Program-made: the position numbers and the translations under genes
In this document: positions 7,485 to 45,283 of the stretch, piece after piece
How the letters are laid out: every line of letters starts with the position of its first letter
How positions within the stretch are numbered: the first letter of the stretch is position 1
Assembly (NCBI GenBank): GCA_965222155.1
Contig: CBDCTH010000012.1
Coordinates: 1,888,001-1,952,000 of the forward strand
From: Gammaproteobacteria bacterium
GTDB taxonomy: Bacteria > Pseudomonadota > Gammaproteobacteria > Eutrophobiales > Eutrophobiaceae
Length of the DNA stretch: 64,000 nucleotides
Direction: 5' to 3'
Notes under the pieces: generated by a model
Told to the model about the DNA's origin: nothing
What the model saw: the letters and a program-made list of their open reading frames with translations, nothing else
Database searches by the model: none

Positions 7485-7774
7485 CACATTGCCGTCGGTA
7501 CGACGGCAGGCGGATTTACTACGGAATTTACCAACGGGCACGGCTATCCCGTACATCACAAGGATTTCGTGATCTATCGGCCGACGCTAACGGTCGATGG
7601 AGAATTGATCATCGATCGCGGCCATCTCACCGCACTGGATGACCCGGAGATACGCGCCGTCGCTGCCAGATACGGCGATCCGGACACCCTGCTGAAACAG
7701 CACTGGAGTCCGGATCAAGACCCGCGTTTCAGATAGTTACCGGCGTCTTCCGCTCAGGCTACGCGCTCGACCTG
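7485..7774 (+). repeat. Diverged direct duplicate of 5885-6176 (3' end of the M29-like gene plus the stop region of the convergent Mo-oxidoreductase)
   Basis: CACATTGCCGTCGGTACGACGGCAGGCGGATTTAC...CAAGACCCGCGTTTCAG...ACGCGCTCGACCTG is present in both copies. Confidence 0.92.
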
Positions 7775-9889
7775 TACCAGGCTGTCAAACACCCTCGGGG
7801 CATGCCCCATGTCGGCAAAGTCCGCGGACGAAACGACGTTGGCGGTACCATTGTTCAACTGCCGCCAGTAGCCCAGGGATGACACCACCAGACCGGCATT
7901 GACATCGTCAGTGACCTTGGCCGCGACCTCGAAGGCGCCCCGATCATTAAAGACGCGCACGTGGTCTCCTTCACTGATACCCCGCGCCTCGGCATCCGTT
8001 TCGCTGATCATCACGAACTGCTCGCCCTGTCTCTTGATCTTGTTATCCATGTTTGCATAGCAGGAGTTCAGGAAGCCATGACTCTTCGGAGCTATGATAT
8101 TCAGAGGGTATTTCTCTGCCAGTTCCGGGTTGGTCTCGGGCGCTTCCTTTGACGGCACATAATCAGGCAGACTGTCCAGCGGTTCGCTGTTGCCCGGTTG
8201 CATATCCTCGTACATCTGCCGGAATGGCGCGATGACAAAATTGCCGTTGGCGGCAGTTTCCGAGAAAAATTCACACTTGCCTGATGGGGTGGGGAAATTG
8301 CCCTCCTTATGCGGCGCCCGCTCATGCGGTTCGCCAATCTTGATGCGTGCAAAACCGTGATCGCGCAGGTAATCCACATTAATGCCCTCACAGGCCGGCG
8401 CATCCCAGTCAACAAAACGCTCCAGGCATTCACTGTCAGACCACTTGAAGCGGTCTTCATCAAAGCCCATGCGCGCGGCCAGGTGGTTGAAGATATCGTT
8501 ATTGGACAAAACCTCGCCGGGTAGTTCTGCACACTTGGTATTGTAGGTAAGATAGTTGTGCCCCCAAGACAGGATGATATCTTCCATTTCCGCCCCCATG
8601 GCAGCAGGCAGGACGATATCCGCATAGGCCGCCGTATCGGAGATAAAATGCTCGGCTGAGACCGTGAACAGGTCTTCACGCTCCAGTCCCTTGATTATCT
8701 TGTCACTCTCAGGGGCCTGGGTAACCGGGTTCGAGTTCCAGCACATCAGGGACATGACAGGCGGATCCAGGTCCATTTCGCCGGTCAGCGCCCGGCCTAT
8801 CTGCAGGTTGTTGATAACCCGCGTGCCTTCCGGAATAAGTTGAGGTTGCGATATCACGTCCAGCTTGTAGGGATGTTCCCAGAACGTCATCTGGTAAATA
8901 CCACCTCCTACCTCGCGCCAGGCGCCGGTCAGGGACGGCAGACAACTGATGGCCCGTATCGCCTGGCCGCCGCCCCAGTTTCTCTCCACCGCAACGCCGA
9001 TACGAATGGCGGCAGGGTTGTTGGCGGCATATTCACGCGCCAGGGTGCGGATATCATCGGCACTGATGCCCGTGATCTCAGCAGCCCATTCCGGCGTGCG
9101 CGTCTTGGCCCTCTCTGCCAGTTCCTTATAGCCCACGGTGTAGTTATCCACGTAATCCTGATCAAGCAGGTTCTCATCGATAATGGTATGGATCATCGCC
9201 ATGGCCAGGGCGCCGTCGGTACCGGGACGTATTGTTATATGCCAGTCGGCCTGCCTGGCGGTACGTGAACGATAGGGGTCAATCACGATCAGTTTGGCCC
9301 CTTTGTCTTTGGCCTCCTTGACAAAATGCCAGGCGTGCAGGTTGGTGCTTACACTGTTGCAACCCCATAGAATAATGTATTTGGAATAGGTAAAACTTTC
9401 CGGGTCAACGCCGCTGGTGGGCCCGTTGGTCAGTACCCAGGCCGTTGCCGACCCCTCGCCGCAGAATGTGCGCTCACAAACCGTCGCGCCCAGCTTGTTG
9501 AAAAAGGCATCCCCGCCATTCAAACCATGTATCAGTCCCTGGTGTCCGAGGTAACTGTACGGGACGATCGCCTGGGTGCCATATTCATCGATGATGTCTT
9601 TCCAGCGGCTGATCACTTCATCCAGCGCCTCATCCCAGGAAACGCGCTCGAATTGTTTACTGCCCTTCGGGCCGGTCCTGCGCAAGGGGTGGAGAACGCG
9701 ATCAGGATGGTAATGGCGTTTCTCATAATCATCGAGCTTTACGCACAAACCACCCCGCGTCATGGGATGCTCCTTATTCCCGTGCACACCGGTAAGTTTG
9801 CCGTCCTCTACTTCGAATACCATGGAACAGGTATCGGGACAATCATGCGGGCAACCGCCGTAATAAGTTTCTTTCAGTTGTGCAGCCAT
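7754..9889 (-). CDS. Molybdopterin-dependent oxidoreductase (MopB/DMSO reductase superfamily) with N-terminal 4Fe-4S motif
   Basis: CPHDCPDTC...GGLCVK, RVSWDEALD, IRPGTDGALA, TAAYADIVLPAA and a C-terminal MopB_CT domain. GGAGG lies before ATG 9889. Confidence 0.9.
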   Translation of the reverse strand: MAAQLKETYYGGCPHDCPDTCSMVFEVEDGKLTGVHGNKEHPMTRGGLCVKLDDYEKRHYHPDRVLHPLRRTGPKGSKQFERVSWDEALDEVISRWKDIIDEYGTQAIVPYSYLGHQGLIHGLNGGDAFFNKLGATVCERTFCGEGSATAWVLTNGPTSGVDPESFTYSKYIILWGCNSVSTNLHAWHFVKEAKDKGAKLIVIDPYRSRTARQADWHITIRPGTDGALAMAMIHTIIDENLLDQDYVDNYTVGYKELAERAKTRTPEWAAEITGISADDIRTLAREYAANNPAAIRIGVAVERNWGGGQAIRAISCLPSLTGAWREVGGGIYQMTFWEHPYKLDVISQPQLIPEGTRVINNLQIGRALTGEMDLDPPVMSLMCWNSNPVTQAPESDKIIKGLEREDLFTVSAEHFISDTAAYADIVLPAAMGAEMEDIILSWGHNYLTYNTKCAELPGEVLSNNDIFNHLAARMGFDEDRFKWSDSECLERFVDWDAPACEGINVDYLRDHGFARIKIGEPHERAPHKEGNFPTPSGKCEFFSETAANGNFVIAPFRQMYEDMQPGNSEPLDSLPDYVPSKEAPETNPELAEKYPLNIIAPKSHGFLNSCYANMDNKIKRQGEQFVMISETDAEARGISEGDHVRVFNDRGAFEVAAKVTDDVNAGLVVSSLGYWRQLNNGTANVVSSADFADMGHAPRVFDSLVQVERVA

Positions 9890-10063
9890 GGAACACCTCC
9901 CCTCTGGACTAATTAATTTAAATTTCCGGAATATTCCTGAAACAGATATTAGTATCACCGTATTATAGTATATAAATTAAAGTGTTTGGAAAATTTTGCA
10001 TTTGATTTTATCCGGTTTTTGTGAGTACTCTAAGCAGTCCTGAAAAAGGGAACATAATTCTCT

Positions 10064-10633
10064 ATGAAACGAATTATTATCGGTATGTCCGGGGCCAGCG
10101 GCCTGCCTTACGGTATCCGGCTGGTAGAAGTGCTGGCTGATTTGCCGGATATCGAAACCCACCTGATCATGACCAATGCGGCCAAGCTTAATATCGGTAT
10201 TGAAACGGAACACAGCGTCACCGACATAGAGGCGTTGGCGGACGTGGTCCATAGCGTAAAAGACGTTGCCGCCACCATCTCCAGCGGTTCTTTCAGGACC
10301 GACGGCATGATCGTCGCTCCCTGTTCCATGCGGACACTGTCAGCGATTGCCCACTCCTACGCCGACAACCTGCTGGTGCGAGCTGCCGACGTAGTCCTCA
10401 AGGAACGCCGGCGCCTGGTAATCATGCCCCGTGAAACGCCGTTGCATACGGGACACTGTAAATTATTCTACGATGCATCAGTCCTGGGAGCAATCATCGC
10501 CCCGCCCATCCCGGCGTTTTATAATCGACCCCAAACCATCGATGATATTGTCAACGCCAGTATAGGACGGGTGCTGGACTTGTTTGATATCGAACCCGGC
10601 ATCGTAAAACGCTGGGCGGGCGTGAAAAACTGA
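10064..10633 (+). CDS. ubiX: Flavin prenyltransferase UbiX (BsdB/VdcB-like)
   Basis: IIGMSGASG, ISSGSF, APCSMRTL, RAADVVLKERRRL, PRETP and PAFY. Confidence 0.95.
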   Translation: MKRIIIGMSGASGLPYGIRLVEVLADLPDIETHLIMTNAAKLNIGIETEHSVTDIEALADVVHSVKDVAATISSGSFRTDGMIVAPCSMRTLSAIAHSYADNLLVRAADVVLKERRRLVIMPRETPLHTGHCKLFYDASVLGAIIAPPIPAFYNRPQTIDDIVNASIGRVLDLFDIEPGIVKRWAGVKN

Positions 10634-10709: not shown

Positions 10710-12386
10710 ATGTCTGGATGCACAAATTATTTATCAATATCTTCCTTATTGCTATCACTTCTGCTGCTGGCGGGATGTGACAGCGACGGTCAACCTGACC
10801 CACTGAGCCGAAAAGACCCTCGCCCGAACATTTTACTCATTGTCGCGGATGATCTCGGTTATACCGACCTGGGGGTATATGGCGGTGAAATTGATACGCC
10901 ATACCTGGATCAATTAGCCCGCTCCGGGGTGATGTTCACTAATTTTCATGTCGCCGCCGTGTGTTCGCCGACCCGTTCGATGCTGCTGTCCGGCACGGAT
11001 AACCACCTCGCCGGTCTGGGCAATATGTATGAGGCCATGGCGCCAAATCAATCGGGCAAGCCGGGATATGAGGGCTACCTGAACTTCCGGGTTGTATCCC
11101 TGGCAACCCTGCTGCGTGACGCGGGCTATCACACCTATATGACCGGCAAGTGGCACCTGGGCAGGGAGAAGCAGCAGAGTCCGACAGCCCGCGGGTTTGA
11201 AAAGTCCTTTGTGTTGACCCATGGTGGCGGCGGCCACTTTGATGACCTGGGCATAAGCATGGACGACCAGGTCGCAGAGTATCGCAAAAACGGTGAACCG
11301 GTTGAATTACCGAAGGGGTTTTATTCGACGGAGTTCTATACCAGTGAACTTATCCGCTACATCGACGCGGATAAAAATGATGATAAACCGTTCTTTGCCT
11401 ACCTTGCCTACACTGCGCCCCATTGGCCATTACAGGCGCCGGATGCGTCCATTGCCAGACAAAAAGGCGCCTACGACGAAGGATACGACGTGATTCATGA
11501 ACGGCGGATAAAGCAATTAACAGCCAAAGGATTACTCAAGGAAGGGGTACAAATTGCCCCCCGTCTTCCCGGCGAACCGGCCTGGGATGAACTTGATGAA
11601 GATGAGAAGAAGATTGAGGCGCGCAAAATGGAGATTTATGCCGCCATGGTGAAGGATATGGATAGCCATATCGGGCGTTTATTGAAGCGCCTGGAGCAAT
11701 CCGGAGAACTGGATAATACATTCATCTATTTCATGTCGGATAACGGCGCAGAGGGAGCGCCCCTTGATGACTGGCCCGTGTTCGGCGACTGGATGGAGCA
11801 ATGCTGTGATAACAGTTACGAGAACATGGGCAGACCGGATTCTTATGTGTTTTACGGACAAAACTGGGGGCGGGTGAGTACCGGCCCTTTCCGGGCGTAT
11901 AAGGGCTTCACCTCCCAGGGAGGTATCCTGGTCCCCGCAATTGCCAGCTACCCCGGATATGTTGAACAAGGAAAAGTCAATCATGATTTTGTTTCCGTCC
12001 TGGACGTCATACCGACACTGCTGGAACTGGCTGAGACAGATCATCCCGGCACAAACTATCAGGGCAGGCAAATCTATCCGCTGGAAGGGAAGTCAATGAC
12101 GGCCATGTTGAAAGGGAATAGTGACAGGGTGCATGCACAGGATGATTGGATGGCATGGGAAATATTTGAGCGCCGGGCAGTATTACAGAACGAGTGGAAA
12201 ATGCTGATGATGGAGCATCCATGGGGAAACGGTCATTGGCAACTCTACGACTTGAAGGCAGACCCTGCAGAGCAGTTTGATTTAGCCGCGGAATACCCCG
12301 AACTGGTTGAGAGGATGGGCAGTTATTGGGAACAATACCAGTCAGAGGTGGGAATTATTCCAATGCAGGGTGGAACAAGGTTTTAA
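10710..12386 (+). CDS. Arylsulfatase (Cys-type formylglycine sulfatase, AtsA-like), probable lipoprotein
   Basis: Lipobox LLLAGC; PNILLIVADDLG, CSPTRSMLLSG, GKWHLG, APHWPLQ and SDNG. Confidence 0.92.
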   Translation: MSGCTNYLSISSLLLSLLLLAGCDSDGQPDPLSRKDPRPNILLIVADDLGYTDLGVYGGEIDTPYLDQLARSGVMFTNFHVAAVCSPTRSMLLSGTDNHLAGLGNMYEAMAPNQSGKPGYEGYLNFRVVSLATLLRDAGYHTYMTGKWHLGREKQQSPTARGFEKSFVLTHGGGGHFDDLGISMDDQVAEYRKNGEPVELPKGFYSTEFYTSELIRYIDADKNDDKPFFAYLAYTAPHWPLQAPDASIARQKGAYDEGYDVIHERRIKQLTAKGLLKEGVQIAPRLPGEPAWDELDEDEKKIEARKMEIYAAMVKDMDSHIGRLLKRLEQSGELDNTFIYFMSDNGAEGAPLDDWPVFGDWMEQCCDNSYENMGRPDSYVFYGQNWGRVSTGPFRAYKGFTSQGGILVPAIASYPGYVEQGKVNHDFVSVLDVIPTLLELAETDHPGTNYQGRQIYPLEGKSMTAMLKGNSDRVHAQDDWMAWEIFERRAVLQNEWKMLMMEHPWGNGHWQLYDLKADPAEQFDLAAEYPELVERMGSYWEQYQSEVGIIPMQGGTRF

Positions 12387-12407: not shown

Positions 12408-12700
12408 TCAGGATGAACGAGCAGGTTTCATGGTTAAAAGCGCTGGTATCATTATTGCGTAACAGGCCAGGATGCAGACGATCGCGTACAGATTCACGCC
12501 GTTCAGTGTGTTCTCTGTAACGAATAATCCGGCAGTAGTCGGTGCGAGAGAACTGCCAATCACCAAAACAACTGCTGCAATGGGCATTATCGTTCGTGTT
12601 GCATCAAGTGCAGCAATGGATGCGTACAGGTAAGGAAGACCCAGCATCCAGGAAATGAAAAACAATGATGCGCCGATTGGATATAACCATATATAGCTGG
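12408..12700 (-). pseudogene. C-terminal fragment of an MFS-type membrane transporter
   Basis: Four hydrophobic helices (WLYPIGASLFFISW...IGSSLAPTTAG...). The N-terminal part is missing. Confidence 0.5.
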
Positions 12701-12856
12701 CCCCTGATAGATCTGCGCGTTGACTGGACAGACAATAATCCATTGGTCGAACTTCGGGACCTGTGGGACCGATATGCCCCGCAGGTGGATGATTATATAT
12801 CACGAGCAAACAACCCCTCGTCAGCGCCAGGTTATGGTGTCCCAGGTGAAGGATAA
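12692..12856 (+). pseudogene. C-terminal fragment of a DUF1028-family protein
   Basis: WPLIDLRVDWTDNNPLVELRDLWDRYAPQVDDYISRANNPSSAPGYGVPGE matches the DUF1028 C-terminus as recalled. It abuts the MFS fragment head-to-head. Confidence 0.6.
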
Positions 12857-12892
12857 CGGCGCCGAGGGAGCGCCCCTTCTGTTGAAGCCAGC

Positions 12893-13327
12893 TCAGCTAC
12901 ACCGCGCGTCGCCGCCCTCATTACAACAAGTCCACCAGCGAAAGTAAGCGCTAGACTCTCCGTCGCCCATACCATGCCTCCACTTTTGATAAGCCGTTGC
13001 ATTATATGTGCCCCCAGGGTCGAGTGTAAAGAGCTCGTCCGAACCTTTATTGACAACGACTCTCACCTTTACGGGGTAACTGCATTGGTTCCTGGCATGA
13101 AGTTCCTTGGGGTACAGGCAGAGATTCGTGCTCGGGTGAGCACAACGTTTGGAGTCAATACGTCCACTGTCATAATTAATAAGTTTAAGCTTATAACAAG
13201 CGGGGGGCGCCCGGAACGAGGACCTGGAACACTCTGCGATACTCGCTGAGGTAAACAGGCACGACACCACAAACGCGCCAGCCAATGTAACCCACCGGAA
13301 GGGGGAGAGTTGAGTTATGTGCATCAT
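12893..13327 (-). CDS. Secreted Cys-rich small protein, possibly tendamistat-like beta-sandwich
   Basis: Signal peptide ending ...FTSASIA; GGAGG RBS upstream; APPAC and NQCSYPVKVRVVVNKGSD...TLDPGG. Confidence 0.6.
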   Translation of the reverse strand: MMHITQLSPFRWVTLAGAFVVSCLFTSASIAECSRSSFRAPPACYKLKLINYDSGRIDSKRCAHPSTNLCLYPKELHARNQCSYPVKVRVVVNKGSDELFTLDPGGTYNATAYQKWRHGMGDGESSAYFRWWTCCNEGGDARCS

Positions 13328-13528
13328 GATTGCCTCCGGTAATGATCTTAGTCATCTTGGATTGTTACAACAGTACCTTTTTGTCAAAACATGGTACTGT
13401 TCTCCTTCGATGCATCCTCTTCAGGAGTCAGTAACTGTGTAAAATGACACTGTTTTTATTATACCTTTTCCTAAGAGGTTTGTAAAGCCCAATGACAACA
13501 GCCCAATGACAACACCCAATGACAACAT

Positions 13529-13734
13529 CAGGGCAAACGCATACTTTTGAATTCAGATGTTTTTGCCCGATTCCGTCATTCTGGCGCAGGCCAGAATCCA
13601 GTGAATAACCCTTCATTACCCTGAGCATGCGCTGTTGTTTGACTGGATGCTGGCATTCGCCAGCATGACGGGCGGCGTTGTCCGGTTGGTTTCCTGTCTT
13701 CTGCAACAGAATCCAAAAGTATGCGGTTGCCCTG
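13529..13734. mobile_element. ISAs1-like MITE (26-bp TIR, 10-bp TSD) carrying a CGTC-type palindrome pair
   Basis: TIRs are CAGGGCAAACGCATACTTTTGAATTC / GAATCCAAAAGTATGCGGTTGCCCTG. TSD ATGACAACAT at 13519-13528 and 13735-13744. Confidence 0.88.
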
Positions 13735-13995
13735 ATGACAACATTGGTGTGTTGACAACATAACTTTGATCTTATATATTTCTGACTGTTTGGAGCCTTT
13801 GGCTGTACGTTTCTCCCGACACTTTCTGGAGGAGAAGCCGAACCCAAAGGCTATTTTATTAATATAGTTGATAACGGACTATTCGGAATGACTGGCCGGG
13901 CGAGCAAACCGTCCCAGCGGAAGAGCGACAGTGGGTTTTCGCTGTACCCAGGAAACCAAACAGGGTACTGATGAACCCTCAGTGCGTTGTGTCAA

Positions 13996-15441
13996 TCAGG
14001 CAAACAGGTTACCGGGGTCAAGCGCCTGTTTGAGCCTGCCGCGCAGTTCGGACATGCCGGCGTTGTCGTAGCCGGCCACCGCCCGATCCAGGTAACCGGT
14101 ACTGATATGGCTCACGCCGAAACCTCGTTTTGCCATGGTGTTTATAAGTGCATCAAGAGCAGCTACCGTCCTGGATTCAGCGGAAGTTTGATACGGTAAA
14201 TAAACCCGCTGGATGATGGAGCGCCAACCGACCGCGTACTCCGTCATATAATCAAATTCACTGCTGCGCACCGCGTTACTGACCAGCTTGTTCATCTTCA
14301 ACACCTGGCGGCCGTCAATTGGGGAGACAAACCCGGCATACAGGTACGCCTGGCCGGACCAGTTCTCCAGATGATTGAACTCCACCGAGGGCCGGCCGCG
14401 CATCATCTTCTCCCTGCCTGCCAATACCGGATTAGCCGCCTGGGTTTTCAAGTCGTGTACCGTGGCGCCTTGAATGCCGGCAAAAGCGCCTCTTACCATG
14501 GGCCATAACACATCGATGTTGGGCGGGGTGTTATACAAGGCGCCATACAAAGTCCACAGGCCCACACCATAATCTGCCGCCAACCGCTCCATATCGATTG
14601 TTTTGCCGTGGGCATAATCTTTCCGTGATGCGTATGGGCTCACGTCCAGTACCGGATTACTGATTACGACCGTATTCGGAATAATCATGTTGACCTTGAA
14701 TGAACGCAATATCTCCACCGCCTGGGCAAGATCACTGTCGCTTTTGAGAGTCACTGCAAACGGCTGGTATGCAGGTGGCGCCGGCATCAGCCATACGCCC
14801 ATTTTGGTCACGATGCCCAGGTTGGATTGCGTAAACAGGCCATCAAGGTAGGGGCCGTAGGCATATTTTGCCAGTTGCCAGGTGTTGCTCTTCGGCATGG
14901 CCCCCATACCCAGCCTCACCAGTTCGCCGTCAGCCAGCATGATCTCCATACCACATTGCATCATTGTGTGGTCTCCGTAGGCGGTATAGCCGAACTCCCG
15001 GGCGCTGATGCTGCCGGCGACCGAGTTCAAGCCGTTCCTGTCGCAATCCACCCACAGGCCGGTCCTGTTTTCCTGCAGGTAGTCATTTAACTGTATATAA
15101 CTCACGCCCGGTTCCACCAGGGCGTAAGCGGCCTTGTTATTTACCTCCACGATTTTATCCATCCGGGATTGATCGATAACCAGGACATCCTTATCCGTTA
15201 CCGTACTGACTATCCCCCCGTTAGCAGCGCTGTTGGGCAGCACCCATAGTGAGACATTGCTTCCGGCAGCAATTGTCAATACCGCCCGCAACTGTTCAAC
15301 GTCCTCAGGCAGGACCACGCCGACAGGTGTCTTGCCCAGCCGTGCATATCCCTCCTTGACGACAGTGGCGGCACCGGACAACACGGCGTCCTTACCCAGT
15401 TCGTTTTTCAGTTCCTTAATTAACTGCCTGGACATATTCAC
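13996..15441 (-). CDS. VAO/PCMH-family FAD-binding oxidoreductase (PchF-like), divergent active site
   Basis: YALVEPGVSY, GYTAYGDH, CGMEIMLADG, GPYLDGLFTQSNLGIVTKMG and KQALDPGNL. Confidence 0.85.
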   Translation of the reverse strand: MNMSRQLIKELKNELGKDAVLSGAATVVKEGYARLGKTPVGVVLPEDVEQLRAVLTIAAGSNVSLWVLPNSAANGGIVSTVTDKDVLVIDQSRMDKIVEVNNKAAYALVEPGVSYIQLNDYLQENRTGLWVDCDRNGLNSVAGSISAREFGYTAYGDHTMMQCGMEIMLADGELVRLGMGAMPKSNTWQLAKYAYGPYLDGLFTQSNLGIVTKMGVWLMPAPPAYQPFAVTLKSDSDLAQAVEILRSFKVNMIIPNTVVISNPVLDVSPYASRKDYAHGKTIDMERLAADYGVGLWTLYGALYNTPPNIDVLWPMVRGAFAGIQGATVHDLKTQAANPVLAGREKMMRGRPSVEFNHLENWSGQAYLYAGFVSPIDGRQVLKMNKLVSNAVRSSEFDYMTEYAVGWRSIIQRVYLPYQTSAESRTVAALDALINTMAKRGFGVSHISTGYLDRAVAGYDNAGMSELRGRLKQALDPGNLFA

Positions 15442-15474: not shown

Positions 15475-15723
15475 TTATAATTCTGATGTTTCATCCACTT
15501 GCGCCGGCGGGATATTGTGTTTGTATTTTTCAGGGTGATCCGGGTCTGCTCGAAACCAGGCTTCCCGCTGCGTATAGTCTATGGATTCATCCGGTTCGCT
15601 ATCGCGCCAGGTGAACGAACAGCGCCGGCAGTGCAAAACGGCCCATACGATTTCATCCCCTTCCCTGCCCTGGTATTCGGTGCGCAGGTGTTCTTCGGCT
15701 GATCGGCAACGGGGGCAGTTCAT
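15475..15723 (-). CDS. Hydroxyarylic acid decarboxylase subunit D (BsdD/VdcD-like Zn ribbon)
   Basis: MNCPRC...WAVLHCRRCSFTWRDSEP...IPP; overlaps the UbiD stop codon. Confidence 0.85.
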   Translation of the reverse strand: MNCPRCRSAEEHLRTEYQGREGDEIVWAVLHCRRCSFTWRDSEPDESIDYTQREAWFRADPDHPEKYKHNIPPAQVDETSEL

Positions 15724-17198
15724 CGGCTTTCCACCTCTTTTTGCAACTGCTGAATATATCTTGCAAGTTCATCAATTTCGGGTCCCCTGGGCGGCGATAC
15801 GATTTTTGCGTCACCACCGATGGGATCCGGCGGCATGAAACTGGTTGCGTCAATGATCAGACGATGTCCCTTGCCTGGGATTTCCGCAGCCGGGTCAATG
15901 TGCACCATTGGCATGTTAGGTATGACGATGATATCGGCGGCGCGGGTGCGCGTGGATAAGGCCCACATCACCTGGTTGAGATCAAAGGGATCGACGTCGT
16001 CGTCCACCATGATAAGATTTTTCAGGTACATCAGGCCGTGGGGTGTCCCCAGGGCGCGCATGGCAACCGATTTGGCAAAACCGGCAAATCGGTTCTTCAC
16101 TGAAATAATCCCAGTCAAACCGTGCTGGTACAAGGCGTTAACCGCAACGACTTCAGGAAAGTTTTCCTTTAACTGAGAGTAAATCGGTGCAGAGGTATTC
16201 AGCCCGATCAAAGTATCATGCTCGGTCCAGCCCTTGCCGATATAAATACTTTCAAAGATGGGATCGGTACGGTGGGATACGGCAGTCACCTGGAACAGGG
16301 GGACTCGACCAATACCACTGTAACTGCCCGGAAATTCTCCGAACGGCCCCTCCAGGCAGCGCTGGTTATTCAATAATTGCGCCTCTATCACCATTTCAGA
16401 GCCGGCGAGGATATCCAGACCATTGCCGGACCGGGTCAGGTCAATGGGGCTGCCCATCATCTGCGAGGCATAGGCAAACTCCGATTCATCGTAATTGACC
16501 GGGGTGGCCGCAAACATGGCCATGGCCGGGTGGTTGCCGATCATCACTGCGATCTTCAGCGGGACATCATCCTGTTCCGCCATGCGTATCTGTTGCGCCA
16601 TGTCATGGGACGGGACAGACAACAAGGTAAACATATCAGGACCCTGCACCTGGATACGGTATATCCCCACGTTCTGTTTGGCAAAATTATCCGGGTCGCG
16701 GGGATCGCGGCTGACGATATTGGCCTTGGCGATATAAAAACCACCATCCAGGGCGTTGATACGATACAACGGCAACAGGTCATACAGGTTGATATCAGCC
16801 TCAAGCCTGTTCTCATGCACCGCTGCATCTTCCGGTTTCACCCTGTTGATCAGCGGTCTGTCGGAGCCCCAACGGCCTGTGAGTTCGTAGAATAGTTCCT
16901 TGATACTGGTCCCTTTCGGCTTGCCCAGCAGGAGGGCTGTATTGGAAAAACTGCCATGTACACCTACCACGAGTCGTTTTCCGGGGTAACCGCGGATCTT
17001 ATCGAACAGGATGGCCGGACCGGACATCGCGTCGCGCCCTGCCGCAACAACAACCTTACGGATATCAGGCTCGGGCATGACCGCTTCCGGCCAGGTAATA
17101 CACTGGCCATGCTCGGATAATAGCTCAAGATAATCCCGTATATTCCGGACCCGTTCCGCTACGGCCCGGGCTTCGGCTGATAAAGTATTAGCCCGCAT
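15720..17198 (-). CDS. UbiD-family prFMN decarboxylase, BsdC/VdcC/ShdC (4-hydroxybenzoate/vanillate) clade
   Basis: DINLYDLLPLYRIN, DGGFY, QNVGIYR, EGPFGEFPGSY, ALGTPHG and VDDDVDPF...VMWALSTR. Confidence 0.92.
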   Translation of the reverse strand: MRANTLSAEARAVAERVRNIRDYLELLSEHGQCITWPEAVMPEPDIRKVVVAAGRDAMSGPAILFDKIRGYPGKRLVVGVHGSFSNTALLLGKPKGTSIKELFYELTGRWGSDRPLINRVKPEDAAVHENRLEADINLYDLLPLYRINALDGGFYIAKANIVSRDPRDPDNFAKQNVGIYRIQVQGPDMFTLLSVPSHDMAQQIRMAEQDDVPLKIAVMIGNHPAMAMFAATPVNYDESEFAYASQMMGSPIDLTRSGNGLDILAGSEMVIEAQLLNNQRCLEGPFGEFPGSYSGIGRVPLFQVTAVSHRTDPIFESIYIGKGWTEHDTLIGLNTSAPIYSQLKENFPEVVAVNALYQHGLTGIISVKNRFAGFAKSVAMRALGTPHGLMYLKNLIMVDDDVDPFDLNQVMWALSTRTRAADIIVIPNMPMVHIDPAAEIPGKGHRLIIDATSFMPPDPIGGDAKIVSPPRGPEIDELARYIQQLQKEVESR

Positions 17199-17365: not shown

Positions 17366-17728
17366 TCAGTTTTCTTCTCCAGTAATATAGCCTGCCAGCA
17401 GGTCCAACTGCCTGTCGGTGATTTCAGTGGGACGAAACGGCGGCATCAGTTTGAAACCTTCCCGTACCACCAGCTTTACATACTCGGGATCCAGGTTATC
17501 CCGGTTGAGCAGGGGCGCCTGATCTTCACTCAGCCTTTCCTGCAGGCGCATGGTCCCCGGGTGGCCCGGTCCTTCACCATGACAGGCAATACAATACAGT
17601 TCGAACAATGCCTTGCCATCAGTAATTGCTTCGATTTGCACGACTGCGGGCTCACCTGCTCCTGTAGTTTCACCCTCACCGCAACCTGTCGCTAACAACA
17701 ACATAACTACCACAGATATTTTAGCCAC
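17366..17728 (-). CDS. Monoheme cytochrome c subunit (PchC-like), lipoprotein
   Basis: CIACH heme motif, GHPGT and MPPFRPTEI; lipobox LLATGC. The probable start is GTG 17728. Confidence 0.88.
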   Translation of the reverse strand: MAKISVVVMLLLATGCGEGETTGAGEPAVVQIEAITDGKALFELYCIACHGEGPGHPGTMRLQERLSEDQAPLLNRDNLDPEYVKLVVREGFKLMPPFRPTEITDRQLDLLAGYITGEEN

Positions 17729-17947
17729 AGAGAACACAGAGTGGATCGAGACTCTTGTTAATACACAGGTAGCTTGCATATTTATCATTTTATCTTATTC
17801 GCTCGACCCGTCATTCCGGCGAATGCCGGAATCCAGTGAACCAATCATCCTTATAATATAAGGATTTAATTTTTCGACTGGATTCCTGCTTGCGCAGGAA
17901 TGACGAGTACGCTGATAACTTTATACTTTCTCTGTATCCTCTGTGGC
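17724..17947. repeat. GCCACAGAG-ended palindromic element (family C) with a nested CGTCATTCC palindrome pair (~17809-17905)
   Basis: Ends are GCCACAGAGAACACAGAG / CTCTGTATCCTCTGTGGC. Internal homology to 36467-36579. Confidence 0.8.
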
Positions 17948-17952
17948 TTTAA

Positions 17953-19605
17953 TCAACCCTGAGAGACCGGCCAGATGCCGCTTTTGCCCGGTGATAAAAT
18001 GCCATCCGGGTCAAGGGCCTGTTTCAGTCTATGGTGTAATTTCCATAGCGCCCCGTCGTTCCAGTTGTAGGTGCCGGCAATCTCGTCCATGAAATTAAGA
18101 TGGGTACGGTACTCACCATAACCCTGTTCGGCAAAATCATTAACCAGCAGGCCGAAACACTCATGGGCGCGGCGCCGTTCATCGTCATTCAGGCGATCAA
18201 AAACCAGTTGAAAGATATTCAGGAGTTCCCGCCATCCCACCAGGAACTCACCGATGTAATCGAACCCGTACTCATTCGCCCGATCTCTTATCAGTGTGAA
18301 CTGTTTCATGGAATCTTCGCCGGTGACAGGTGAACGCGGCGAGAAATCGATATGCGCGCCACTGCCTACCCAGTTCATTAAACTGAATTCGGTCATATTC
18401 GGTACGCCGCGCATAAGCTTGACCCGATAGCGCCAGGCCGGATCATTCGGCCGCTCCCCCTCAAAGAAAAATTTAGCGCCGGGGATGCTGCGAAAGGCCT
18501 CTTCCAGGACTTTCCAGTTGTTATCCATGATCGGTTCCGGTCCATACAGGGCGCCGTAAAAATTCCACATGCCGATGTCAAGATCTTCCGCCATCTTCTG
18601 ACGCTGGCGCATGGGCATGGGACCTTTACCGCTGTAATATTGCTTCCTGGTCGCCCTGGGGGCAGCTTCCCAGATCAGGCCCACGGTCGTCGCCGCATTG
18701 GGTATCAACATATTAAGGCGCAAGGGACCGACAACCTCAGTAATCCGGTAAAGATCTTCTTCGCGCGGGAAAGTCACCAGGTACGGCCGGTAACCGGGTG
18801 GCTCGGGCATCAACCAGATACCCACTTTGGTGATAATGCCGAAATTTGACTGGGTAAACATACCTTCCACCCAGGGCCCGCAGCCATACTTGTACAGGCC
18901 GGACGTAGCGGCGCCGGACAAGGCCCCCATACCGGTATCGACGACGGTGCCGTCGGCCAGTACCACCTGCATGCCGCAGTTCATCAGCAGGTGATCGCCA
19001 TAGGGCGTATAACCAGCGCCGTGCTCCGACAGGTTGCCCAGTACGCTGCCCCAGCCCGGGGCCGCAGGGTCTATCCATAATTTGCTGCCGCGCTGCTGCA
19101 GGTAATTATACAGTTCAAAATAGCTGACCCCCGGTTCAACCACGGCGTAACCGTGTTCCTCATTGACTTCGATAATGCGCTTCATGCGGTTCAAATCGAG
19201 AACGAAAAAACCGGGCTTGCGCGGCGCCGGACCGCCGTAGGCATAATTCTTGCCGGTGGAAACAGTCCAAAGGGGAATTTGATAATTGCGGGCAATGCCC
19301 AGGATGGCCTGAATTTCTTCAACGGTCCTGGGCGCAACCGCTGCGGACGGCATATTTGCCTCGTCCGGTAGCGTGGAATAGACATCCCGATACGTTCTCA
19401 GTTCCTGTTGTTCATCGGTAATCACCCACTCAGCACCGACGACCTGACGCAATTCCTCAACGGCCTGGTTGTACCCGGCAGGCGTCAGGGTCTCCGGCAG
19501 GGGTTTTCCTTGTGCTTCATCTGCTGCGGCTATCCCGCTACCGGCGGCCAGGGGCGCGCCGGCAGCCGCGAACGATGATTTCAGGAAAATTCGTCTGGAT
19601 AGCAT
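17953..19605 (-). CDS. Tat-exported VAO/eugenol-oxidase/PchF-family flavoprotein
   Basis: Tat motif SRRIFLK; GKNYAYGG, VEPGVSYF, GYTPYGDH, GAHIDFSP and GYGEYRTH. Confidence 0.92.
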   Translation of the reverse strand: MLSRRIFLKSSFAAAGAPLAAGSGIAAADEAQGKPLPETLTPAGYNQAVEELRQVVGAEWVITDEQQELRTYRDVYSTLPDEANMPSAAVAPRTVEEIQAILGIARNYQIPLWTVSTGKNYAYGGPAPRKPGFFVLDLNRMKRIIEVNEEHGYAVVEPGVSYFELYNYLQQRGSKLWIDPAAPGWGSVLGNLSEHGAGYTPYGDHLLMNCGMQVVLADGTVVDTGMGALSGAATSGLYKYGCGPWVEGMFTQSNFGIITKVGIWLMPEPPGYRPYLVTFPREEDLYRITEVVGPLRLNMLIPNAATTVGLIWEAAPRATRKQYYSGKGPMPMRQRQKMAEDLDIGMWNFYGALYGPEPIMDNNWKVLEEAFRSIPGAKFFFEGERPNDPAWRYRVKLMRGVPNMTEFSLMNWVGSGAHIDFSPRSPVTGEDSMKQFTLIRDRANEYGFDYIGEFLVGWRELLNIFQLVFDRLNDDERRRAHECFGLLVNDFAEQGYGEYRTHLNFMDEIAGTYNWNDGALWKLHHRLKQALDPDGILSPGKSGIWPVSQG

Positions 19606-19608: not shown

Positions 19609-20361
19609 TCAGGAACTCTGGTCCAGGTTGAGTTTTAAATGTGAGCCGTCACACCAGGGCTTGGTTTTCGAGTACTTGCAACCGCACAGTGCAACGTGCT
19701 GGAAACCATCCAGTTTAAATTGCAGCGGCACGCGTCTTGTTTCCTTGTGGGAACCATCGCAGAACGGCTGATTTTGAGAACGACCGCAGGCGCACCAGTA
19801 ATACTCACCCTTGTCCAGGTTCATCAGGTAGGGTGAATTACGACTGCCATCAAGGAATTTGGCCTTTACCCAACCCTCGTTGTACGGACTCACCATGTTC
19901 AGCTTCAATTCCATGGATTGGAACAGCCAGCGTCCGTCCTGCTTGACGCACTGACAGTCGTAGGTACCGCCAATCCAGTGGGATTCAGCCTCGTCGGTGT
20001 GGGGGTTGGGTACGGTTGCCGATTCCCACAGGTACCAGAATACCGTGGCGCTGAGACCATCAGGGGCGATGTCGATAAGCGGAGAAATCATATAGTGTAA
20101 CGACCACCAGATTTTCTCACCGGCAATCCCGCGCAATCCCCTTGCCAGTTTATCCCGGCCATGGTATTTGCCGAACCCTTTGCATTCCCAGGTACCGTCT
20201 TCTGCAAAACAGGGGCCGATGATTTCCGGGTCATTGCCGCGATCACAACCCCTGGCATACGTTACTATCAGGCGTTGTAGCGCATCTACGTCTTCGAGAC
20301 GGCTCAGTTTGGCATCCAGTTTTTCCAGTAATCCCTTTATTTCCAGAAGATCATTGCTCAT
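19609..20361 (-). CDS. SnoaL/NTF2-like domain fused to two CDGSH [2Fe-2S] motifs
   Basis: N-terminal LSRLED...YARGCD...FAEDGTW...SLHY...GGTY...DGRWLF; C-terminal WCACGRSQNQPFCDGSH and LCGCKYSKTKPWCDGSH. Confidence 0.88.
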   Translation of the reverse strand: MSNDLLEIKGLLEKLDAKLSRLEDVDALQRLIVTYARGCDRGNDPEIIGPCFAEDGTWECKGFGKYHGRDKLARGLRGIAGEKIWWSLHYMISPLIDIAPDGLSATVFWYLWESATVPNPHTDEAESHWIGGTYDCQCVKQDGRWLFQSMELKLNMVSPYNEGWVKAKFLDGSRNSPYLMNLDKGEYYWCACGRSQNQPFCDGSHKETRRVPLQFKLDGFQHVALCGCKYSKTKPWCDGSHLKLNLDQSS

Positions 20362-20382
20362 ACCTGTCACCCAGGAGTCTGT

Positions 20383-20436
20383 TTAGACAACCGTCATTCC
20401 GGTTAGACAACCGTCATTCCGGCGGATGCCGGAATG
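20383..20436. repeat. 20-bp tandem duplication plus CGTC-type hairpin
   Basis: TTAGACAACCGTCATTCCGG occurs twice; the second copy runs into the hairpin CATTCCGGC-GGAT-GCCGGAATG. Confidence 0.8.
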
Positions 20437-20454
20437 AGGCGTAGTAATGAATTG

Positions 20455-21699
20455 TCAGGCTACCCGTTTCGTTTTTTGTTTGCGTCCCTCAAGCTCTGCC
20501 GCGTAAGCCTTGTAGCGGGTTATCAACCAGCGGTTGAATTGCGGCAAGGTTGCCTCTTTAGGGGCGTAACGCCCGCGCGGCGCAAAACGTGAACGCAGGC
20601 CCTTGTGAACGTTGGTGTTAGCGCCGGTATCCTGGTCATTCAACGTTTCCAGACCCATGACAACAGCCTTGAATATGATATCGAAATTATCCATCCGCAA
20701 TGTGGATTTAGGATAGACGAAACCGACCCGGATGGTCATGGCGTTGGCGCCCTGTGGCAGGATACAGTAATAAAAACAACCGTCAGGCACGCAGCCGAAA
20801 AACAGGTTGGGCAGGATACAGGCGAACATCACCCGCTTGCGTTCATTCTCGGTCAACCCCTCGATCACGGGAAACAGGCAACTGAAAGCAGAGGTAAAAT
20901 TACCGTCCAGCTCCAGGAACCCGGTAGGATGAAATATGGCGCCGTCATCGAAATCGTCCCATTCGGCGAACGTGGCCAGCTTGGAAGGAGCAAAATCGTG
21001 CGGTCCTTTGTGCAGATACCAGGTGTGATGAGGCTCAATGGCATTCTCGTGCATAAACTTCCAGTTCCACGGACTTGGTCCCCAGTCAACCGTAGGCACG
21101 CCTCCCATCTCTGCAAGGTGATGGTTTTCAATTTCCTTGCCGAGCCGTTTCAGACGGGGGGCAAGGGGTTTTGCGTTGCCGTCCATGTTGATGAAGATGA
21201 AACCGTTCCACACTTCGGTACGGAGTACGGGCAGGCAATATTTCTTCTGTAATTCACTCAGGCCGGCATGGGCGTCCATTTCCGGGGCGCTTACCAGCTT
21301 GCCCGTTTCATCATAGGACCAGCCATGGAATGGACAGGTAAAAACCCGGGTATTGCCTTTTTCCTCGCCCAGCAGGTGACCGCGGTGCCGGCACACGGCA
21401 GACATGACCCGCACGCCGCCGTCATCCCGCCGCTGCACCAGGAGAGGGTCTTCGTTGATCGTAATGGACACGTAATCGCCCGCCTGTGGTATCGTACCCA
21501 CGTGCCCCACACAGATCCATTCCCTGTCCCAGACTGCCCGCTTCTCGAATTCAAACCACTCTTCGGAGGTGTAGACTGCCGGCGGCATGCTAAGGCAATC
21601 CTTTAATTCAACATTGGATTCGTCAAGCTGTCCTAATATCTCACGCAGGTGATCGGTCAACCTGATATCAGGTAAGGTATGTGTGACATAATCGGTCAT
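20455..21699 (-). CDS. Rieske non-heme iron oxygenase alpha subunit
   Basis: Rieske motifs CRHRG and CPFHGW; mononuclear Fe motifs NWK...ENAIEPHHTWYLH and DQD. Confidence 0.93.
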   Translation of the reverse strand: MTDYVTHTLPDIRLTDHLREILGQLDESNVELKDCLSMPPAVYTSEEWFEFEKRAVWDREWICVGHVGTIPQAGDYVSITINEDPLLVQRRDDGGVRVMSAVCRHRGHLLGEEKGNTRVFTCPFHGWSYDETGKLVSAPEMDAHAGLSELQKKYCLPVLRTEVWNGFIFINMDGNAKPLAPRLKRLGKEIENHHLAEMGGVPTVDWGPSPWNWKFMHENAIEPHHTWYLHKGPHDFAPSKLATFAEWDDFDDGAIFHPTGFLELDGNFTSAFSCLFPVIEGLTENERKRVMFACILPNLFFGCVPDGCFYYCILPQGANAMTIRVGFVYPKSTLRMDNFDIIFKAVVMGLETLNDQDTGANTNVHKGLRSRFAPRGRYAPKEATLPQFNRWLITRYKAYAAELEGRKQKTKRVA

Positions 21700-22105: not shown

Positions 22106-23530
22106 TCAGAGAGGTTCTGACAGGAAATCCCAGAAGACCAGGAAAAAGATTGTCGACAGTACCAGGGTCAGCAACATGGCCGGCGAGCCTTTCCTGAACC
22201 AGAGTCCGGGAGTGATACGCAGGCTGGGATCGTTCTCGATTCTTGCCAGGCGTTCCGAAATCGTCACAATGTACACGTTTGCGGTCGAACCGATATGGGT
22301 CCCGTTGCCGCCCATGCCCACGCCTATGGCCAGTCCCCACCATAGCGGTGTCACGTTAATGCCCACCGTCTCCATACTTAAAATAATCGGGATCATGGCT
22401 GCCGTGAAAGGAATGTTATCAATGGCTGCAGACAGAACCGCGCCAACCCACATCAGGATAATGGTCGCCATCAGCAGGTCCTGTTGTACAAAGGGTGTAA
22501 TAAACTGGCCAACGTACATGAGGAACTGGCTGTGCTCCACACCTCCCACCAGCATGAACAGTGAAATAAAGAACACCAGCAGGGTAATTTCGACGTGTTC
22601 AAACGTATGGTCCATGGTGATCTTGCGGGAGACGTACATCAGCGCCACCATGCCTACTGCCGCGACAAACCATGGGTCCCAGTGCAGTGCAGTGTGGAGC
22701 ATGAAGAGAATGACCATGAGCCCGAGGATGACGATAGAAGCGTTCCATACCCTCTTGTTTTTCACCTCTACCAAATAATCGGACACGTCTTCAGGTATCT
22801 GGGCAAGTTCCTCTTTGAACAGGTATTTCAGCAGGATCAGCACGCCTATCCAGGCAATGAGAACCGGTGGAAACATGTGGATAGCAAAATCGTTGAATGA
22901 GATATTTGCCGCGGAACCAATCATCAGGTTCGGGGGGTCGCCTACCAGGGTAGCGACACCACCTGTATCAGATAACAAGGCTGCCGCCAGCAGGAAGGGG
23001 ATCGGGGTAACCTTTTGCGCCCGGGCAATCAGGATGATAAGCGGACCAAATATAACCACCGTGGTCACGTTATCCAGCAACAGGGATAAAACGGTAACAC
23101 AGGTACCGGTCAATGCCAGTAATAGATACAAACGACCCTTACTGAAATTTGCGATCCGGTAGGCCAGCATATTGAAGCCGCCGGTGGGTATCATGATGGC
23201 AACTACCGTCATCATGGCGCCCAGCAGGAAGACAACGTTCCAGTCCACGGATTCGACTGCCAGCCCAGGCGAGTAAAATCCATAGAGTTGCCCTACAATC
23301 ACCATAACGACGGCGCCGCCTGCCGCCACTTTCATGCGTTCCAGACCATGTATCATTTCGGTGAATATGCCGACAAAAGTCAGCGCCAGCACGAGTGCCG
23401 ACACCAGCATCGCCTCACTGAACACTAATGGGGCATCGATACTTACAGACTGCCCGTGACCGGACTCGGCAAATGCCAGAATTGGAAACAATGCAACCGC
23501 CAAGACACTGAAAATGGTTCTTTTTATCAT
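22106..23530 (-). CDS. ArsB/NhaD/CitMHS (IT superfamily) transporter
   Basis: VDWNVVFLLGAMM, LLDNVTTV, GGVATLVGDPPN, SAAIDNIPF and GGNGTHIGSTAN. Confidence 0.9.
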   Translation of the reverse strand: MIKRTIFSVLAVALFPILAFAESGHGQSVSIDAPLVFSEAMLVSALVLALTFVGIFTEMIHGLERMKVAAGGAVVMVIVGQLYGFYSPGLAVESVDWNVVFLLGAMMTVVAIMIPTGGFNMLAYRIANFSKGRLYLLLALTGTCVTVLSLLLDNVTTVVIFGPLIILIARAQKVTPIPFLLAAALLSDTGGVATLVGDPPNLMIGSAANISFNDFAIHMFPPVLIAWIGVLILLKYLFKEELAQIPEDVSDYLVEVKNKRVWNASIVILGLMVILFMLHTALHWDPWFVAAVGMVALMYVSRKITMDHTFEHVEITLLVFFISLFMLVGGVEHSQFLMYVGQFITPFVQQDLLMATIILMWVGAVLSAAIDNIPFTAAMIPIILSMETVGINVTPLWWGLAIGVGMGGNGTHIGSTANVYIVTISERLARIENDPSLRITPGLWFRKGSPAMLLTLVLSTIFFLVFWDFLSEPL

Positions 23531-44166: not shown

Positions 44167-45218
44167 GTGAAGCGAACGACATCATCAAACCAACCGACGC
44201 TCTCCTTGCGGAGTTACGTGGAATGATTGCAGAGGCCCGAGGTCAGGTCGCCCAAGTCACCAACGCCGCGCTCACCATGCTTTTCTGGAAAATCGGACAG
44301 CGCATTCACCGCGATATTCTCGGGAAGAAACGTGCGGATTACGGTAAACGGATTGTCGCCTCGCTGGGGCGACATTTAACGGCAGAGTTCGGGGCTGGTT
44401 TTGGCGAAAAAAACCTTAGGCGGATGATCCAGTTTGCCGAAGCGTTTCCCGATGAAGAGATTGTCGCTGCGCTGCGGCGACAATTAGGTTGGACTCACTT
44501 CAAGACGCTGATTCCAATCCAGGATCCATTAAAACGAAATTTCTACGCCGAGATGTGCCGTATTGAACGGTGGAGTACCCGCACACTCGCCAGTAAACTA
44601 GATTCCATGCTCTACGAGCGCACCGCCATTTCCAAAAAGCCGAAAGAAGTCGCCAAAGCCGAGCTCGCTACCCTCGGTACCGAAGACCGATTAACGCCTG
44701 ATCTCGTCTTTCGTGATCCCTACATCCTCGACTTCCTTGGCCTCAACGACCGCTACCTCGAAAAGGACCTTGAAGACGCTATCCTCCGCGAGATCGAAAC
44801 CTTCCTGCTCGAACTTGGCAATGGCTTCGCCTTCCTCGGACGCCAAACCCGCATCCAGATCGACTCCGAAGACTTCTACCTAGACCTCCTCTTCTACCAC
44901 CGCAATCTGAAACGCCTCATTGCCATTGATCTCAAACTTGGCAATTTCAAGGCCGAGTACAAAGGCCAGATGGAACTCTACCTTCGCTGGCTTGCACGCC
45001 ACGAGCAACAACCCGGCGAAGAGATGCCTTTAGGTATCATCCTCTGTGCCGGAAAGAAGGAAGAACAAATCGAACTCCTCGAACTTGGCCGCTCCGGCAT
45101 CCATGTTGCCGAATACCTGACCGCGCTGCCGTCGCGAGAACTCCTGCAACAAAAACTCCACGATGCCATCGAGATTTCACAAGCAAGACTGGAAGCGAAG
45201 AAGAGAGAAACCGAATGA
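44163..45218 (+). CDS. YhcG/DUF1016 PD-(D/E)xK nuclease-domain protein
   Basis: FWKIG, LGWTH, FRDPYILDFL, ELGNGFAF, DLLFYH and GQMELYL. Confidence 0.92.
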   Translation: MSEANDIIKPTDALLAELRGMIAEARGQVAQVTNAALTMLFWKIGQRIHRDILGKKRADYGKRIVASLGRHLTAEFGAGFGEKNLRRMIQFAEAFPDEEIVAALRRQLGWTHFKTLIPIQDPLKRNFYAEMCRIERWSTRTLASKLDSMLYERTAISKKPKEVAKAELATLGTEDRLTPDLVFRDPYILDFLGLNDRYLEKDLEDAILREIETFLLELGNGFAFLGRQTRIQIDSEDFYLDLLFYHRNLKRLIAIDLKLGNFKAEYKGQMELYLRWLARHEQQPGEEMPLGIILCAGKKEEQIELLELGRSGIHVAEYLTALPSRELLQQKLHDAIEISQARLEAKKRETE

Positions 45219-45283
45219 TTTTACTCACCAACCCTGGTCGGGCTTTCGCAAAAAGCGACTTCGGGGGCTAAATCCCGCACGTA

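Follow-up and report, generated by a model that had tools for sequence, protein, structure and literature searches.

A 64,000-nucleotide (nt) stretch of a gammaproteobacterial genome (assembly GCA_965222155.1, contig CBDCTH010000012.1, positions 1,888,001 to 1,952,000; hereafter the window) encodes a two-gene unit that is a conserved, undescribed variant of the Rieske oxygenase system, for which we infer a mechanism below. The first gene (window positions 20455..21699, minus strand, ATG start) encodes the alpha subunit of a Rieske non-heme-iron oxygenase of 414 amino acids (aa). It is followed on the same strand, after an 84-nt spacer (20371..20454), by a gene with a GTG start (19609..20370, minus strand), whose 253-aa product joins an NTF2-like (SnoaL_4) domain to a tandem CDGSH module. 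Rieske oxygenases are classed by their electron-transfer partners, a reductase with or without a ferredoxin, and we know of no class that uses a CDGSH (NEET-type) cluster or an NTF2–iron–sulfur fusion. Bacterial CDGSH proteins are widespread and, to our knowledge, have no established function. Here one of them is genetically tied to a single enzyme, so that its function is directly testable with two recombinant proteins.

Both proteins scored well above the Pfam cut-offs. The alpha subunit matched Rieske (PF00355, 73.1 bits, cut-off 20.3; residues 60–143, nt 21271-21522, minus strand) and Ring_hydroxyl_A (PF00848, 88.9 bits, cut-off 24.9). The fusion matched SnoaL_4 (PF13577, 78.6 bits, cut-off 24; residues 24–153, 19912..20301, minus strand), preceded in the structural model by a long N-terminal helix, and zf-CDGSH (PF09360, 74 bits, cut-off 29.5) in two stretches. 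Both [2Fe-2S] motifs are complete with respect to the consensus C-x-C-x2-(S/T)-x3-P-x-C-D-G-(S/A/T)-H, the first (C193-x-C195...C204-D-G-S-H208) at 19744..19815 (minus strand; contig positions C12:1907744-1907815) and the second (C229-x-C231...C240-D-G-S-H244) at 19639..19701 (minus strand; C12:1907639-1907701). A preliminary description of this DNA had reported a Rieske alpha gene followed directly by one open reading frame (ORF) in which a SnoaL/NTF2 domain is joined to two complete CDGSH motifs, and gene order, domain scores and motifs all agree with it.

The join of the two domains is not a chance event, because it is shared by 118 of the 120 listed relatives of the fusion (150 were found at E ≤ 1e-3 among 435 candidates) and by a 169-member cluster of the ESM Atlas, in which SnoaL_4 is present in 100% and zf-CDGSH in 99% of members. 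In an alignment of 24 fusions (45–95% identity), the second CDGSH motif is invariant, the first nearly so, and many residues of the NTF2 domain are invariant as well. Where the source databases name these relatives, they are called "CDGSH-type Zn-finger protein" or "nuclear transport factor 2 family protein"; one NCBI record names a relative "glutamate synthase". Literature searches, whose reach did not extend to bioRxiv supplements and subscription journals, returned no paper on the pairing of the fusion with a Rieske oxygenase, in keeping with the earlier statement that it was not known as a characterized Rieske partner. In a paper on CDGSH phylogeny, Rieske and Glu_synthase are among the co-occurring domains and the NTF2–CDGSH architecture is not listed (PMC5859297).

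Gene linkage was scored in a scan of one genome per species. Of 138 relatives the best 80 were kept, comprising full-length fusions (loci L001-L049) and NTF2-only matches (L050-L080). A Rieske alpha gene lies directly upstream of the fusion, on the same strand, in 45 of the 49 full-length loci, as judged by phmmer and a scripted count (40 by the script, plus L026, L029, L043, L044 and L049, in which the script had over-extended the fusion ORF upstream). Linkage of fusion homologs to Rieske genes had been named as a check in the preliminary description, and the count upholds it. The adjoining alpha is of the orthologous type (286–974 bits) in 43 of these 45 loci; in L017 and L027 a different alpha adjoins (95 and 80 bits, respectively) and one of the orthologous type lies within 3 kb. 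Four loci are exceptions: L013 offers only 570 nt of DNA upstream of the fusion, L016 lacks an alpha within 8 kb, the alpha of L030 lies on the opposite strand at a distance of 3.6 kb, and the fusion of L045 is degenerate. The stop codon of alpha and the start codon of the fusion overlap in L036, L037, L040, L041 and L042. Genomes carrying the fusion are labelled Gammaproteobacteria, Binatia, Planctomycetota, deltaproteobacteria, alphaproteobacteria (including Novosphingobium and Sphingomonas) and Actinobacteria.

The two genes have also diverged together. Pairwise identities of alpha and fusion correlate with r = 0.81 over 45 pairs (L013 and L016, which have no alpha, and the truncated or degenerate L044, L045, L047 and L048 were omitted), a value inflated by shared ancestry; its informative part is the concordant grouping of paralogues. 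The same genome encodes a second fusion (L081:6745-7482, 57% identical to the window fusion) and a second alpha (L081:5454-6611, 41% identical to the window alpha), divergent from the second fusion and set among housekeeping and toxin-antitoxin genes. The L081 alpha and the L081 fusion each group with L030 and L034. L027 is discordant: its fusion groups with the window type and its orthologous-type alpha with subfamily 2. Linkage, co-divergence and stop/start overlaps establish the fusion, on genomic grounds, as a specific and conserved functional partner of this Rieske alpha lineage.

The reverse test was a metagenome scan with the alpha alignment, which returned 59 alpha relatives at 45–96% identity. 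Among the 42 with at least 900 nt of downstream sequence, 29 are followed by NTF2 and CDGSH domains. In a FastTree phylogeny (rooted with three distant alphas, partial sequences omitted, support values not inspected), the fusion-linked alphas span the whole clade and the fusion-less ones form three separate groups nested among them. Because of this nesting, the partner looks ancestral to the alpha clade and dispensable or relocated in some lineages. Neighbors of the fusion-less alphas include LigB-type dioxygenases, hydantoinases, MarR regulators and a second alpha.

Within the alpha subunit, the ligands of the Rieske cluster (C103/H105/C122/H125, a CXH...CXXH motif) and the residues E222, H225, H230 and D357 are invariant in 27 orthologues. 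By motif spacing, E222 is assigned as the bridging carboxylate and H225/H230/D357 as the ligands of a 2-His-1-carboxylate iron site; the three-residue spacing of E222 and H225 is that of D205/H208 in naphthalene dioxygenase. Searches of the PDB with phmmer matched only the N-terminal half of many alphas. An AlphaFold2 model (pLDDT 84.6, pTM 0.88) was compared with known structures by Foldseek, and ranks 1–18 were occupied by Stc2 (4QUP, 3VCA), CntA (6Y9C, 6ZGP) and 3N0Q. The best values were an E of 1.6e-25 and a TM score of 0.77 for Stc2 (4QUP) and a TM score, on the target, of 0.83 for CntA (6Y9C); alphas of the alpha3-beta3 type appear from rank 19 with scores only slightly weaker. The best NCBIfam match, GbcA (NF058607), reached 107.1 bits against a cut-off of 670 over residues 24–253 only, and the protein is not an equivalog. 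Judged by its modelled fold and bridging glutamate, the alpha subunit is closest to the CntA/Stc2 group, whose members have no beta subunit. CntA is an alpha3 enzyme with a bridging glutamate, E205, that is reduced directly by the FMN/[2Fe-2S] reductase CntB (PMC7948474).

The likeness to these group V enzymes (CntA, GbcA, Stc2) extends to length, about 370–415 aa, and the bridging glutamate is common to the alpha subunit and CntA. It differs from Stc2 and CntA in being only 18–21% identical to them. An adjoining reductase gene is lacking, its place being taken by the NTF2-CDGSH protein, and the context is phenolic or aromatic catabolism instead of quaternary amines. With the canonical alpha3-beta3 dioxygenases of naphthalene, biphenyl and toluene, the unit shares its order, alpha and then an NTF2-fold protein, and an alpha built of Rieske and Ring_hydroxyl_A domains. 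In contrast to these systems, its second protein is not a detectable member of PF00866 and has two extra [2Fe-2S] sites, and no ferredoxin or reductase gene is present in the window or in the loci of its clade.

In the model of the fusion (pLDDT 82.1, pTM 0.75), a long helix at the N-terminus precedes an NTF2 cone, and the C-terminal module is small and rich in beta structure. The best N-terminal profile matches were LdpA (1.6e-12), BaiE (1.4e-10) and LinA (2.1e-10), and Foldseek also ranked LdpA first. LdpA is a homotrimeric, formaldehyde-releasing lyase in which a His–Asp dyad performs acid–base chemistry and two tyrosines hold the substrate phenolate (PMC9942872). Residues Y38, D43, H92 and Y137 of the fusion align with Tyr35, Asp40, His97 and Tyr147 of LdpA, and the chain of the LdpA H97Q mutant shows Q at the H92 column. 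The Asp and His fall on the dyad positions of BaiE and LinA, where the preliminary description had placed them. In a site table of the 80 loci, no fusion row covering the four residues departs from them, apart from the degenerate L045, and nearly all rows of the NTF2-only loci keep them (in L064, one second copy has F in place of Y38); residues of this pocket type hold down to about 38% identity. LdpA, LinA and BaiE, all trimeric SnoaL_4/NTF2 enzymes, have the N-terminal helix and the Tyr/Asp/His/Tyr set in common with the fusion, at an identity of 15–26%. The motif II acid of LdpA, Glu143, is not kept, a hydrophobic residue standing there in the fusion (Ile133 region); none of the three enzymes bears iron–sulfur domains, and none is known to us as an oxygenase partner.

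A beta-like subunit had been one of the two roles first suggested for the fusion. Had the NTF2 domain become a purely structural, divergent beta in an alpha3-beta3 particle, with the Asp, His and Tyr residues as relics and only the CDGSH part functional, this would match the place of the gene directly after alpha, which is the order of the six canonical alpha/beta pairs in this genome, and the NTF2-like fold. SnoaL_4 and Ring_hydroxyl_B also overlap, both matching L032:3099-3587, and one Atlas cluster has PF00866 in 15% of its members. By eye, Asp and His occur in similar contexts in four of the six canonical betas, and the dyad by itself is therefore no proof of catalysis. However, PF00866 did not match the fusion at E ≤ 0.01, and hhalign of the family profile against the six PF00866 betas of the genome gave a probability of 4.7%, that is, no detectable sequence relation. 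The neighbors by sequence and by Foldseek are the enzymes named above, the alpha subunit is nearest to enzymes that have no beta, the pocket-type residues persist at low identity, and members of this NTF2 clade are found next to HpaB-type flavin monooxygenases in loci with no Rieske gene. VIA-align was non-discriminating, with many NTF2-fold chains tied at Z 14–16.5; no Rieske beta is among the 50 rows shown, which excludes nothing. We consider a structural beta unlikely, and by its sequence relations the NTF2 domain is better described as LdpA/LinA-like. A role in binding or converting a phenolic intermediate is suggested by its pocket residues and by its presence next to flavin monooxygenases.

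The 31 NTF2-only loci keep the signature residues of the NTF2 domain in the fusion. A distant Rieske alpha (65–102 bits) is nearby in 18 of them. Fourteen have a gene for a Rieske-type ferredoxin, which in 8 follows the NTF2 gene directly and so takes the position held by the CDGSH module in the fusion, and 10 have an FNR-type (Fer2-FAD-NAD) reductase. No Rieske gene is present in the fetched locus of 13 (L052 and L071 with less than 1 kb of upstream DNA). The three of these 13 that were scanned (L069, L074, L075) carry tandem NTF2 genes beside an HpaB-type flavin monooxygenase, and L069 and L075 also bear an HpcH aldolase gene. These relatives, which accompany hydroxylases of two unrelated classes, bear on the possibility that the NTF2 domain is a separate pathway enzyme, a dehydratase, lyase or isomerase for a step that precedes or follows the oxygenase reaction, with the CDGSH part serving that reaction, its stability or another redox partner. 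Such a role would also agree with the conserved residues of catalytic type, with the alpha relatives that have no fusion nearby (13 of 42) and with the presence of reductases elsewhere in the genome. Yet the CDGSH-less proteins show that the NTF2 chemistry needs no cluster, CDGSH occurs only in the lineage whose loci are without a reductase gene, and the tight linkage, stop/start overlaps and co-divergence of paralogues exceed those of most pathway neighbors. We judge a separate enzyme to be distinctly unlikely.

The loci with the distant alpha type have features of their own. The distant alpha is accompanied by a conserved ORF of about 115 aa (24 ORFs in 23 loci) that has no match in Pfam and usually lies between this alpha and the NTF2-only gene; its product is a possible third subunit. 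Examples are L060:6130-6486, L062:7630-7971, L064:7624-7995, L066:7648-7989, L027:6436-6783 and L017:6071-6415. In L051, L054, L060, L064, L066 and L078, genes for a formamidase, an NTF2-only protein and a Rieske alpha of the distant type form a cluster, which in L051 and L066 also includes an SDR and a styrene-monooxygenase-like (IifC-like) oxygenase and in L066 a flavin reductase as well. These clusters resemble the iif indole pathway with its dienelactone-hydrolase-type IifA replaced. The NTF2-only proteins beside IifC-, IifD- and IifB-like genes were considered as IifA itself and rejected, IifA being a 416-aa protein of the dienelactone hydrolase family (PMC4577076).

The C-terminus of the fusion (residues about 174–244) matched the tandem CDGSH protein of Magnetospirillum (3TBN, 1.3e-23) and human MiNT/CISD3 (6AVJ, 1.1e-17). 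From these matches and the motifs, it is predicted to be a MiNT-like module that binds two clusters. MiNT/CISD3 and 3TBN have the same two motifs per chain at the same spacing; they stand alone, at about 90 aa, and have had no bacterial function assigned to them, whereas the module described here is part of an NTF2 fusion and is genetically tied to one enzyme. Elsewhere, tandem CDGSH is joined to Glu_synthase/FMN_dh domains (about 500 aa), to a TPP enzyme and a Rieske domain (about 745 aa), and to Fer2, guanylate-cyclase-type and Rieske domains (587 aa; P0121-P0124; all architectures, P0121-P0148). A stand-alone tandem-CDGSH ORF of 91 aa is encoded in the same genome (C12:1594100-1594282).

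No gene for a ferredoxin, a reductase or a canonical beta subunit was found in the window by genome scans with PF00355, PF00866, PF00175, PF00111 and PF07992, which detected within C12:1888001-1952000 only the Rieske domain of the alpha subunit and the Fer2 domain of NuoG of complex I. In Pfam and NCBIfam scans of the other window ORFs, the only iron–sulfur proteins were subunits of complex I. By tblastn, an FNR-type reductase gene is absent from all 49 fusion loci, from the window and from L081, and no Rieske-type ferredoxin gene was found in the loci of the window's clade. Such a ferredoxin gene is present in 12 of the 49 loci (L029, L035-L038, L040-L043, L046, L048, L049), each time divergently upstream of alpha and always in the alpha/actinobacterial clade. 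The first report that ferredoxin and reductase are missing thus stands for the window and its clade but not for these 12 loci. The genome as a whole has six genes for canonical betas, three for FNR-type reductases, about 30 Rieske matches of alpha size and three small Rieske ORFs (113–126 aa).

From the observed domain content, conserved residues, linkage and co-divergence, we tentatively infer a dedicated two-protein module in which the NEET-type clusters feed the oxygenase and the NTF2 domain is ligand-binding or catalytic, a reading that is well within reach of the data and still far from secure. The alpha subunit would be a CntA/Stc2-like (alpha3-type, bridging-glutamate) Rieske monooxygenase acting on a phenolic or other aromatic substrate. 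The fusion would trimerize through its LdpA/LinA-like NTF2 domain and associate with the oxygenase, and the MiNT-like module, with two 3Cys-1His [2Fe-2S] clusters, would pass single electrons to the Rieske centre of alpha. Electrons might come from a shared reductase or reduced flavin in the window's clade and from the neighboring Rieske ferredoxin in the alpha/actinobacterial clade. The NTF2 pocket, with a two-tyrosine oxyanion hole and a His–Asp dyad, would bind the phenolic substrate or product or, alternatively, carry out an acid–base conversion such as the elimination of water or formaldehyde. A place for the NEET-type module on the electron path is the most economical explanation because CDGSH is confined to the lineage in which the loci have lost the reductase gene, because it holds the position of the ferredoxin gene in CDGSH-less relatives and because tandem CDGSH is joined to other redox domains elsewhere.

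A number of observations weigh against this two-protein module. The 13 alpha relatives without a fusion downstream suggest that alphas of this lineage may not need it in cis, and a Pfam scan of their neighbors found no reductase substituting for the fusion. Searches among longer proteins, a weak blank, found no protein in which alpha is fused to NTF2 or to CDGSH. A predicted complex of alpha and the fusion scored 0.00, a value that bears on binding in neither direction. To these are added the NTF2-only loci that have no Rieske gene or an HpaB-type partner, the Asp and His of canonical betas, and the reductases and small Rieske proteins elsewhere in the genome, since a standard reductase/ferredoxin system encoded there could support activity. 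The ferredoxin genes retained in 12 of the 49 loci argue that the CDGSH module is not a simple replacement for a ferredoxin. Energetics point the same way. Oxygenase Rieske centres have potentials of about −150 mV. The clusters of mitoNEET lie near 0 mV at pH 7.5 (PMC9737848), and CntA, among the nearest solved relatives, takes its electrons directly from a reductase (PMC7948474); both also argue against a simple ferredoxin replacement. With a potential like that of mitoNEET, forward transfer could be uphill unless the bacterial module is tuned lower. Literature searches for midpoint potentials of bacterial CDGSH proteins gave nothing usable.

Two further roles for the clusters have to be set against electron transfer to the oxygenase. 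Rieske oxygenases uncouple and release reactive oxygen, and their 2Cys-2His Rieske centre normally depends on the general ISC/SUF machinery. The former counts for, and the latter against, a donor role in which, as with eukaryotic NEET proteins, labile [2Fe-2S] clusters pass from the module to its partner's Rieske domain when that domain is in the apo form or damaged by oxidation. The specific pairing is in favor of such a donor, as is mitoNEET, a cluster-transfer protein that acts in its oxidized state (PMC9737848). Maturation factors, however, are rarely encoded one-to-one with a single client, and the fusion to an enzyme-like NTF2 domain would be left unexplained, so that we give cluster donation or repair only slight weight. 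The redox and pH sensitivity of NEET clusters (PMC9737848) would also suit a sensor of redox state, O2 or NO that gates oxygenase activity, or substrate access through the NTF2 domain; the joining of tandem CDGSH to guanylate-cyclase-type, Fer2 and Rieske domains (P0121-P0124) is a signalling-like architecture. Pfam detected no DNA-binding or signalling domain in the fusion, and MarR-type regulators are encoded separately in several loci; a sensor seems to us hardly probable at all.

The dedicated two-protein module could be extended to a new class of electron supply, in which NEET clusters carried on an NTF2 trimer replace the NAD(P)H reductase and wire the oxygenase to dehydrogenases of the pathway, so that substrate oxidation primes hydroxylation. 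We regard this extension as improbable. Candidate donors would be the VAO-type flavoproteins in the window, the xanthine-dehydrogenase-type molybdoenzymes of L028, L033 and L047, which are accompanied by cytochrome b561, and the Glu_synthase and GltD-like (GltB/GltD-like) pair of L031. Were it true, it would give bacterial CDGSH proteins their first defined job. Other neighbors of the fusion are catechol dioxygenases, MarR regulators and GFA formaldehyde-activating enzymes (L017, L030). Speculatively, the pair might demethylate a methoxyphenol such as guaiacol, which the VdcBCD decarboxylase would make from vanillate; the idea is raised because LdpA releases formaldehyde, because GFA genes and catechol dioxygenases occur in related loci and because group V Rieske enzymes are demethylases. 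Expression of these aromatic- or phenol-degrading oxygenases in other hosts would require the fusion if it supplies electrons or acts on the product, and a large group of such uncharacterized oxygenases occurs in sponge-associated Gammaproteobacteria, Binatia, sphingomonads and others. Small EthD-domain-like ORFs also recur in several fusion loci (L017:6437-6775 and L033:4872-5234, with 21.5 and 23.9 bits against a cut-off of 22).

In the window, the pair is part of a same-strand cluster whose first gene encodes a CitMHS-family transporter (22106..23530, minus strand); this transporter is kept upstream of alpha in most, but not all, of the closest gammaproteobacterial loci (L001-L012). Downstream of the fusion, a VAO/PCMH-type flavoprotein with a twin-arginine-like leader (17953..19605, minus strand) starts 4 nt past the fusion stop codon and is followed by a c-type cytochrome (17366..17788, minus strand) that is its likely partner. 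Next come the hydroxyarylic acid decarboxylase subunits VdcC, of the UbiD family (15720-17198, minus strand; 658.3 bits, cut-off 650), and VdcD (15475-15723, minus strand), and a second VAO-type FAD oxidase without a leader (13996..15441, minus strand). A UbiX/VdcB flavin prenyltransferase is encoded at 10064..10633 on the plus strand, flanked by genes for a DMSO-reductase-family molybdoenzyme (7754-9958, minus strand) and a sulfatase (10710-12386, plus strand), and three ORFs at 12408-13847 have no family match.

Parts of alpha, of the fusion and of neighboring genes are matched at 90–99% identity by contigs from RNA libraries that bear the label sponge metagenome, and one of these contigs crosses the junction between fusion and flavoprotein. 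They are a weak hint that the pair is expressed, DNA carry-over being possible in RNA libraries. Between the cytochrome c and flavoprotein genes lie two REP-like palindromic units in inverted orientation (17800-17910). The bin holding these units has a summed depth of 200–435× in four RNA-library contig sets and many loose ends, which suggests a very abundant short repeat. Further along the window, a type I restriction-modification locus (42742-54119; hsdM 42742-44166, hsdS 45520-46674, hsdR 51195-54119) is interrupted by genes for an AAA_15/OLD-TOPRIM ATPase (46671-48704) and a UvrD-type helicase (48682-50433), which form a Gabija-like (GajA/GajB) pair in a region of low G+C content (0.44–0.46).

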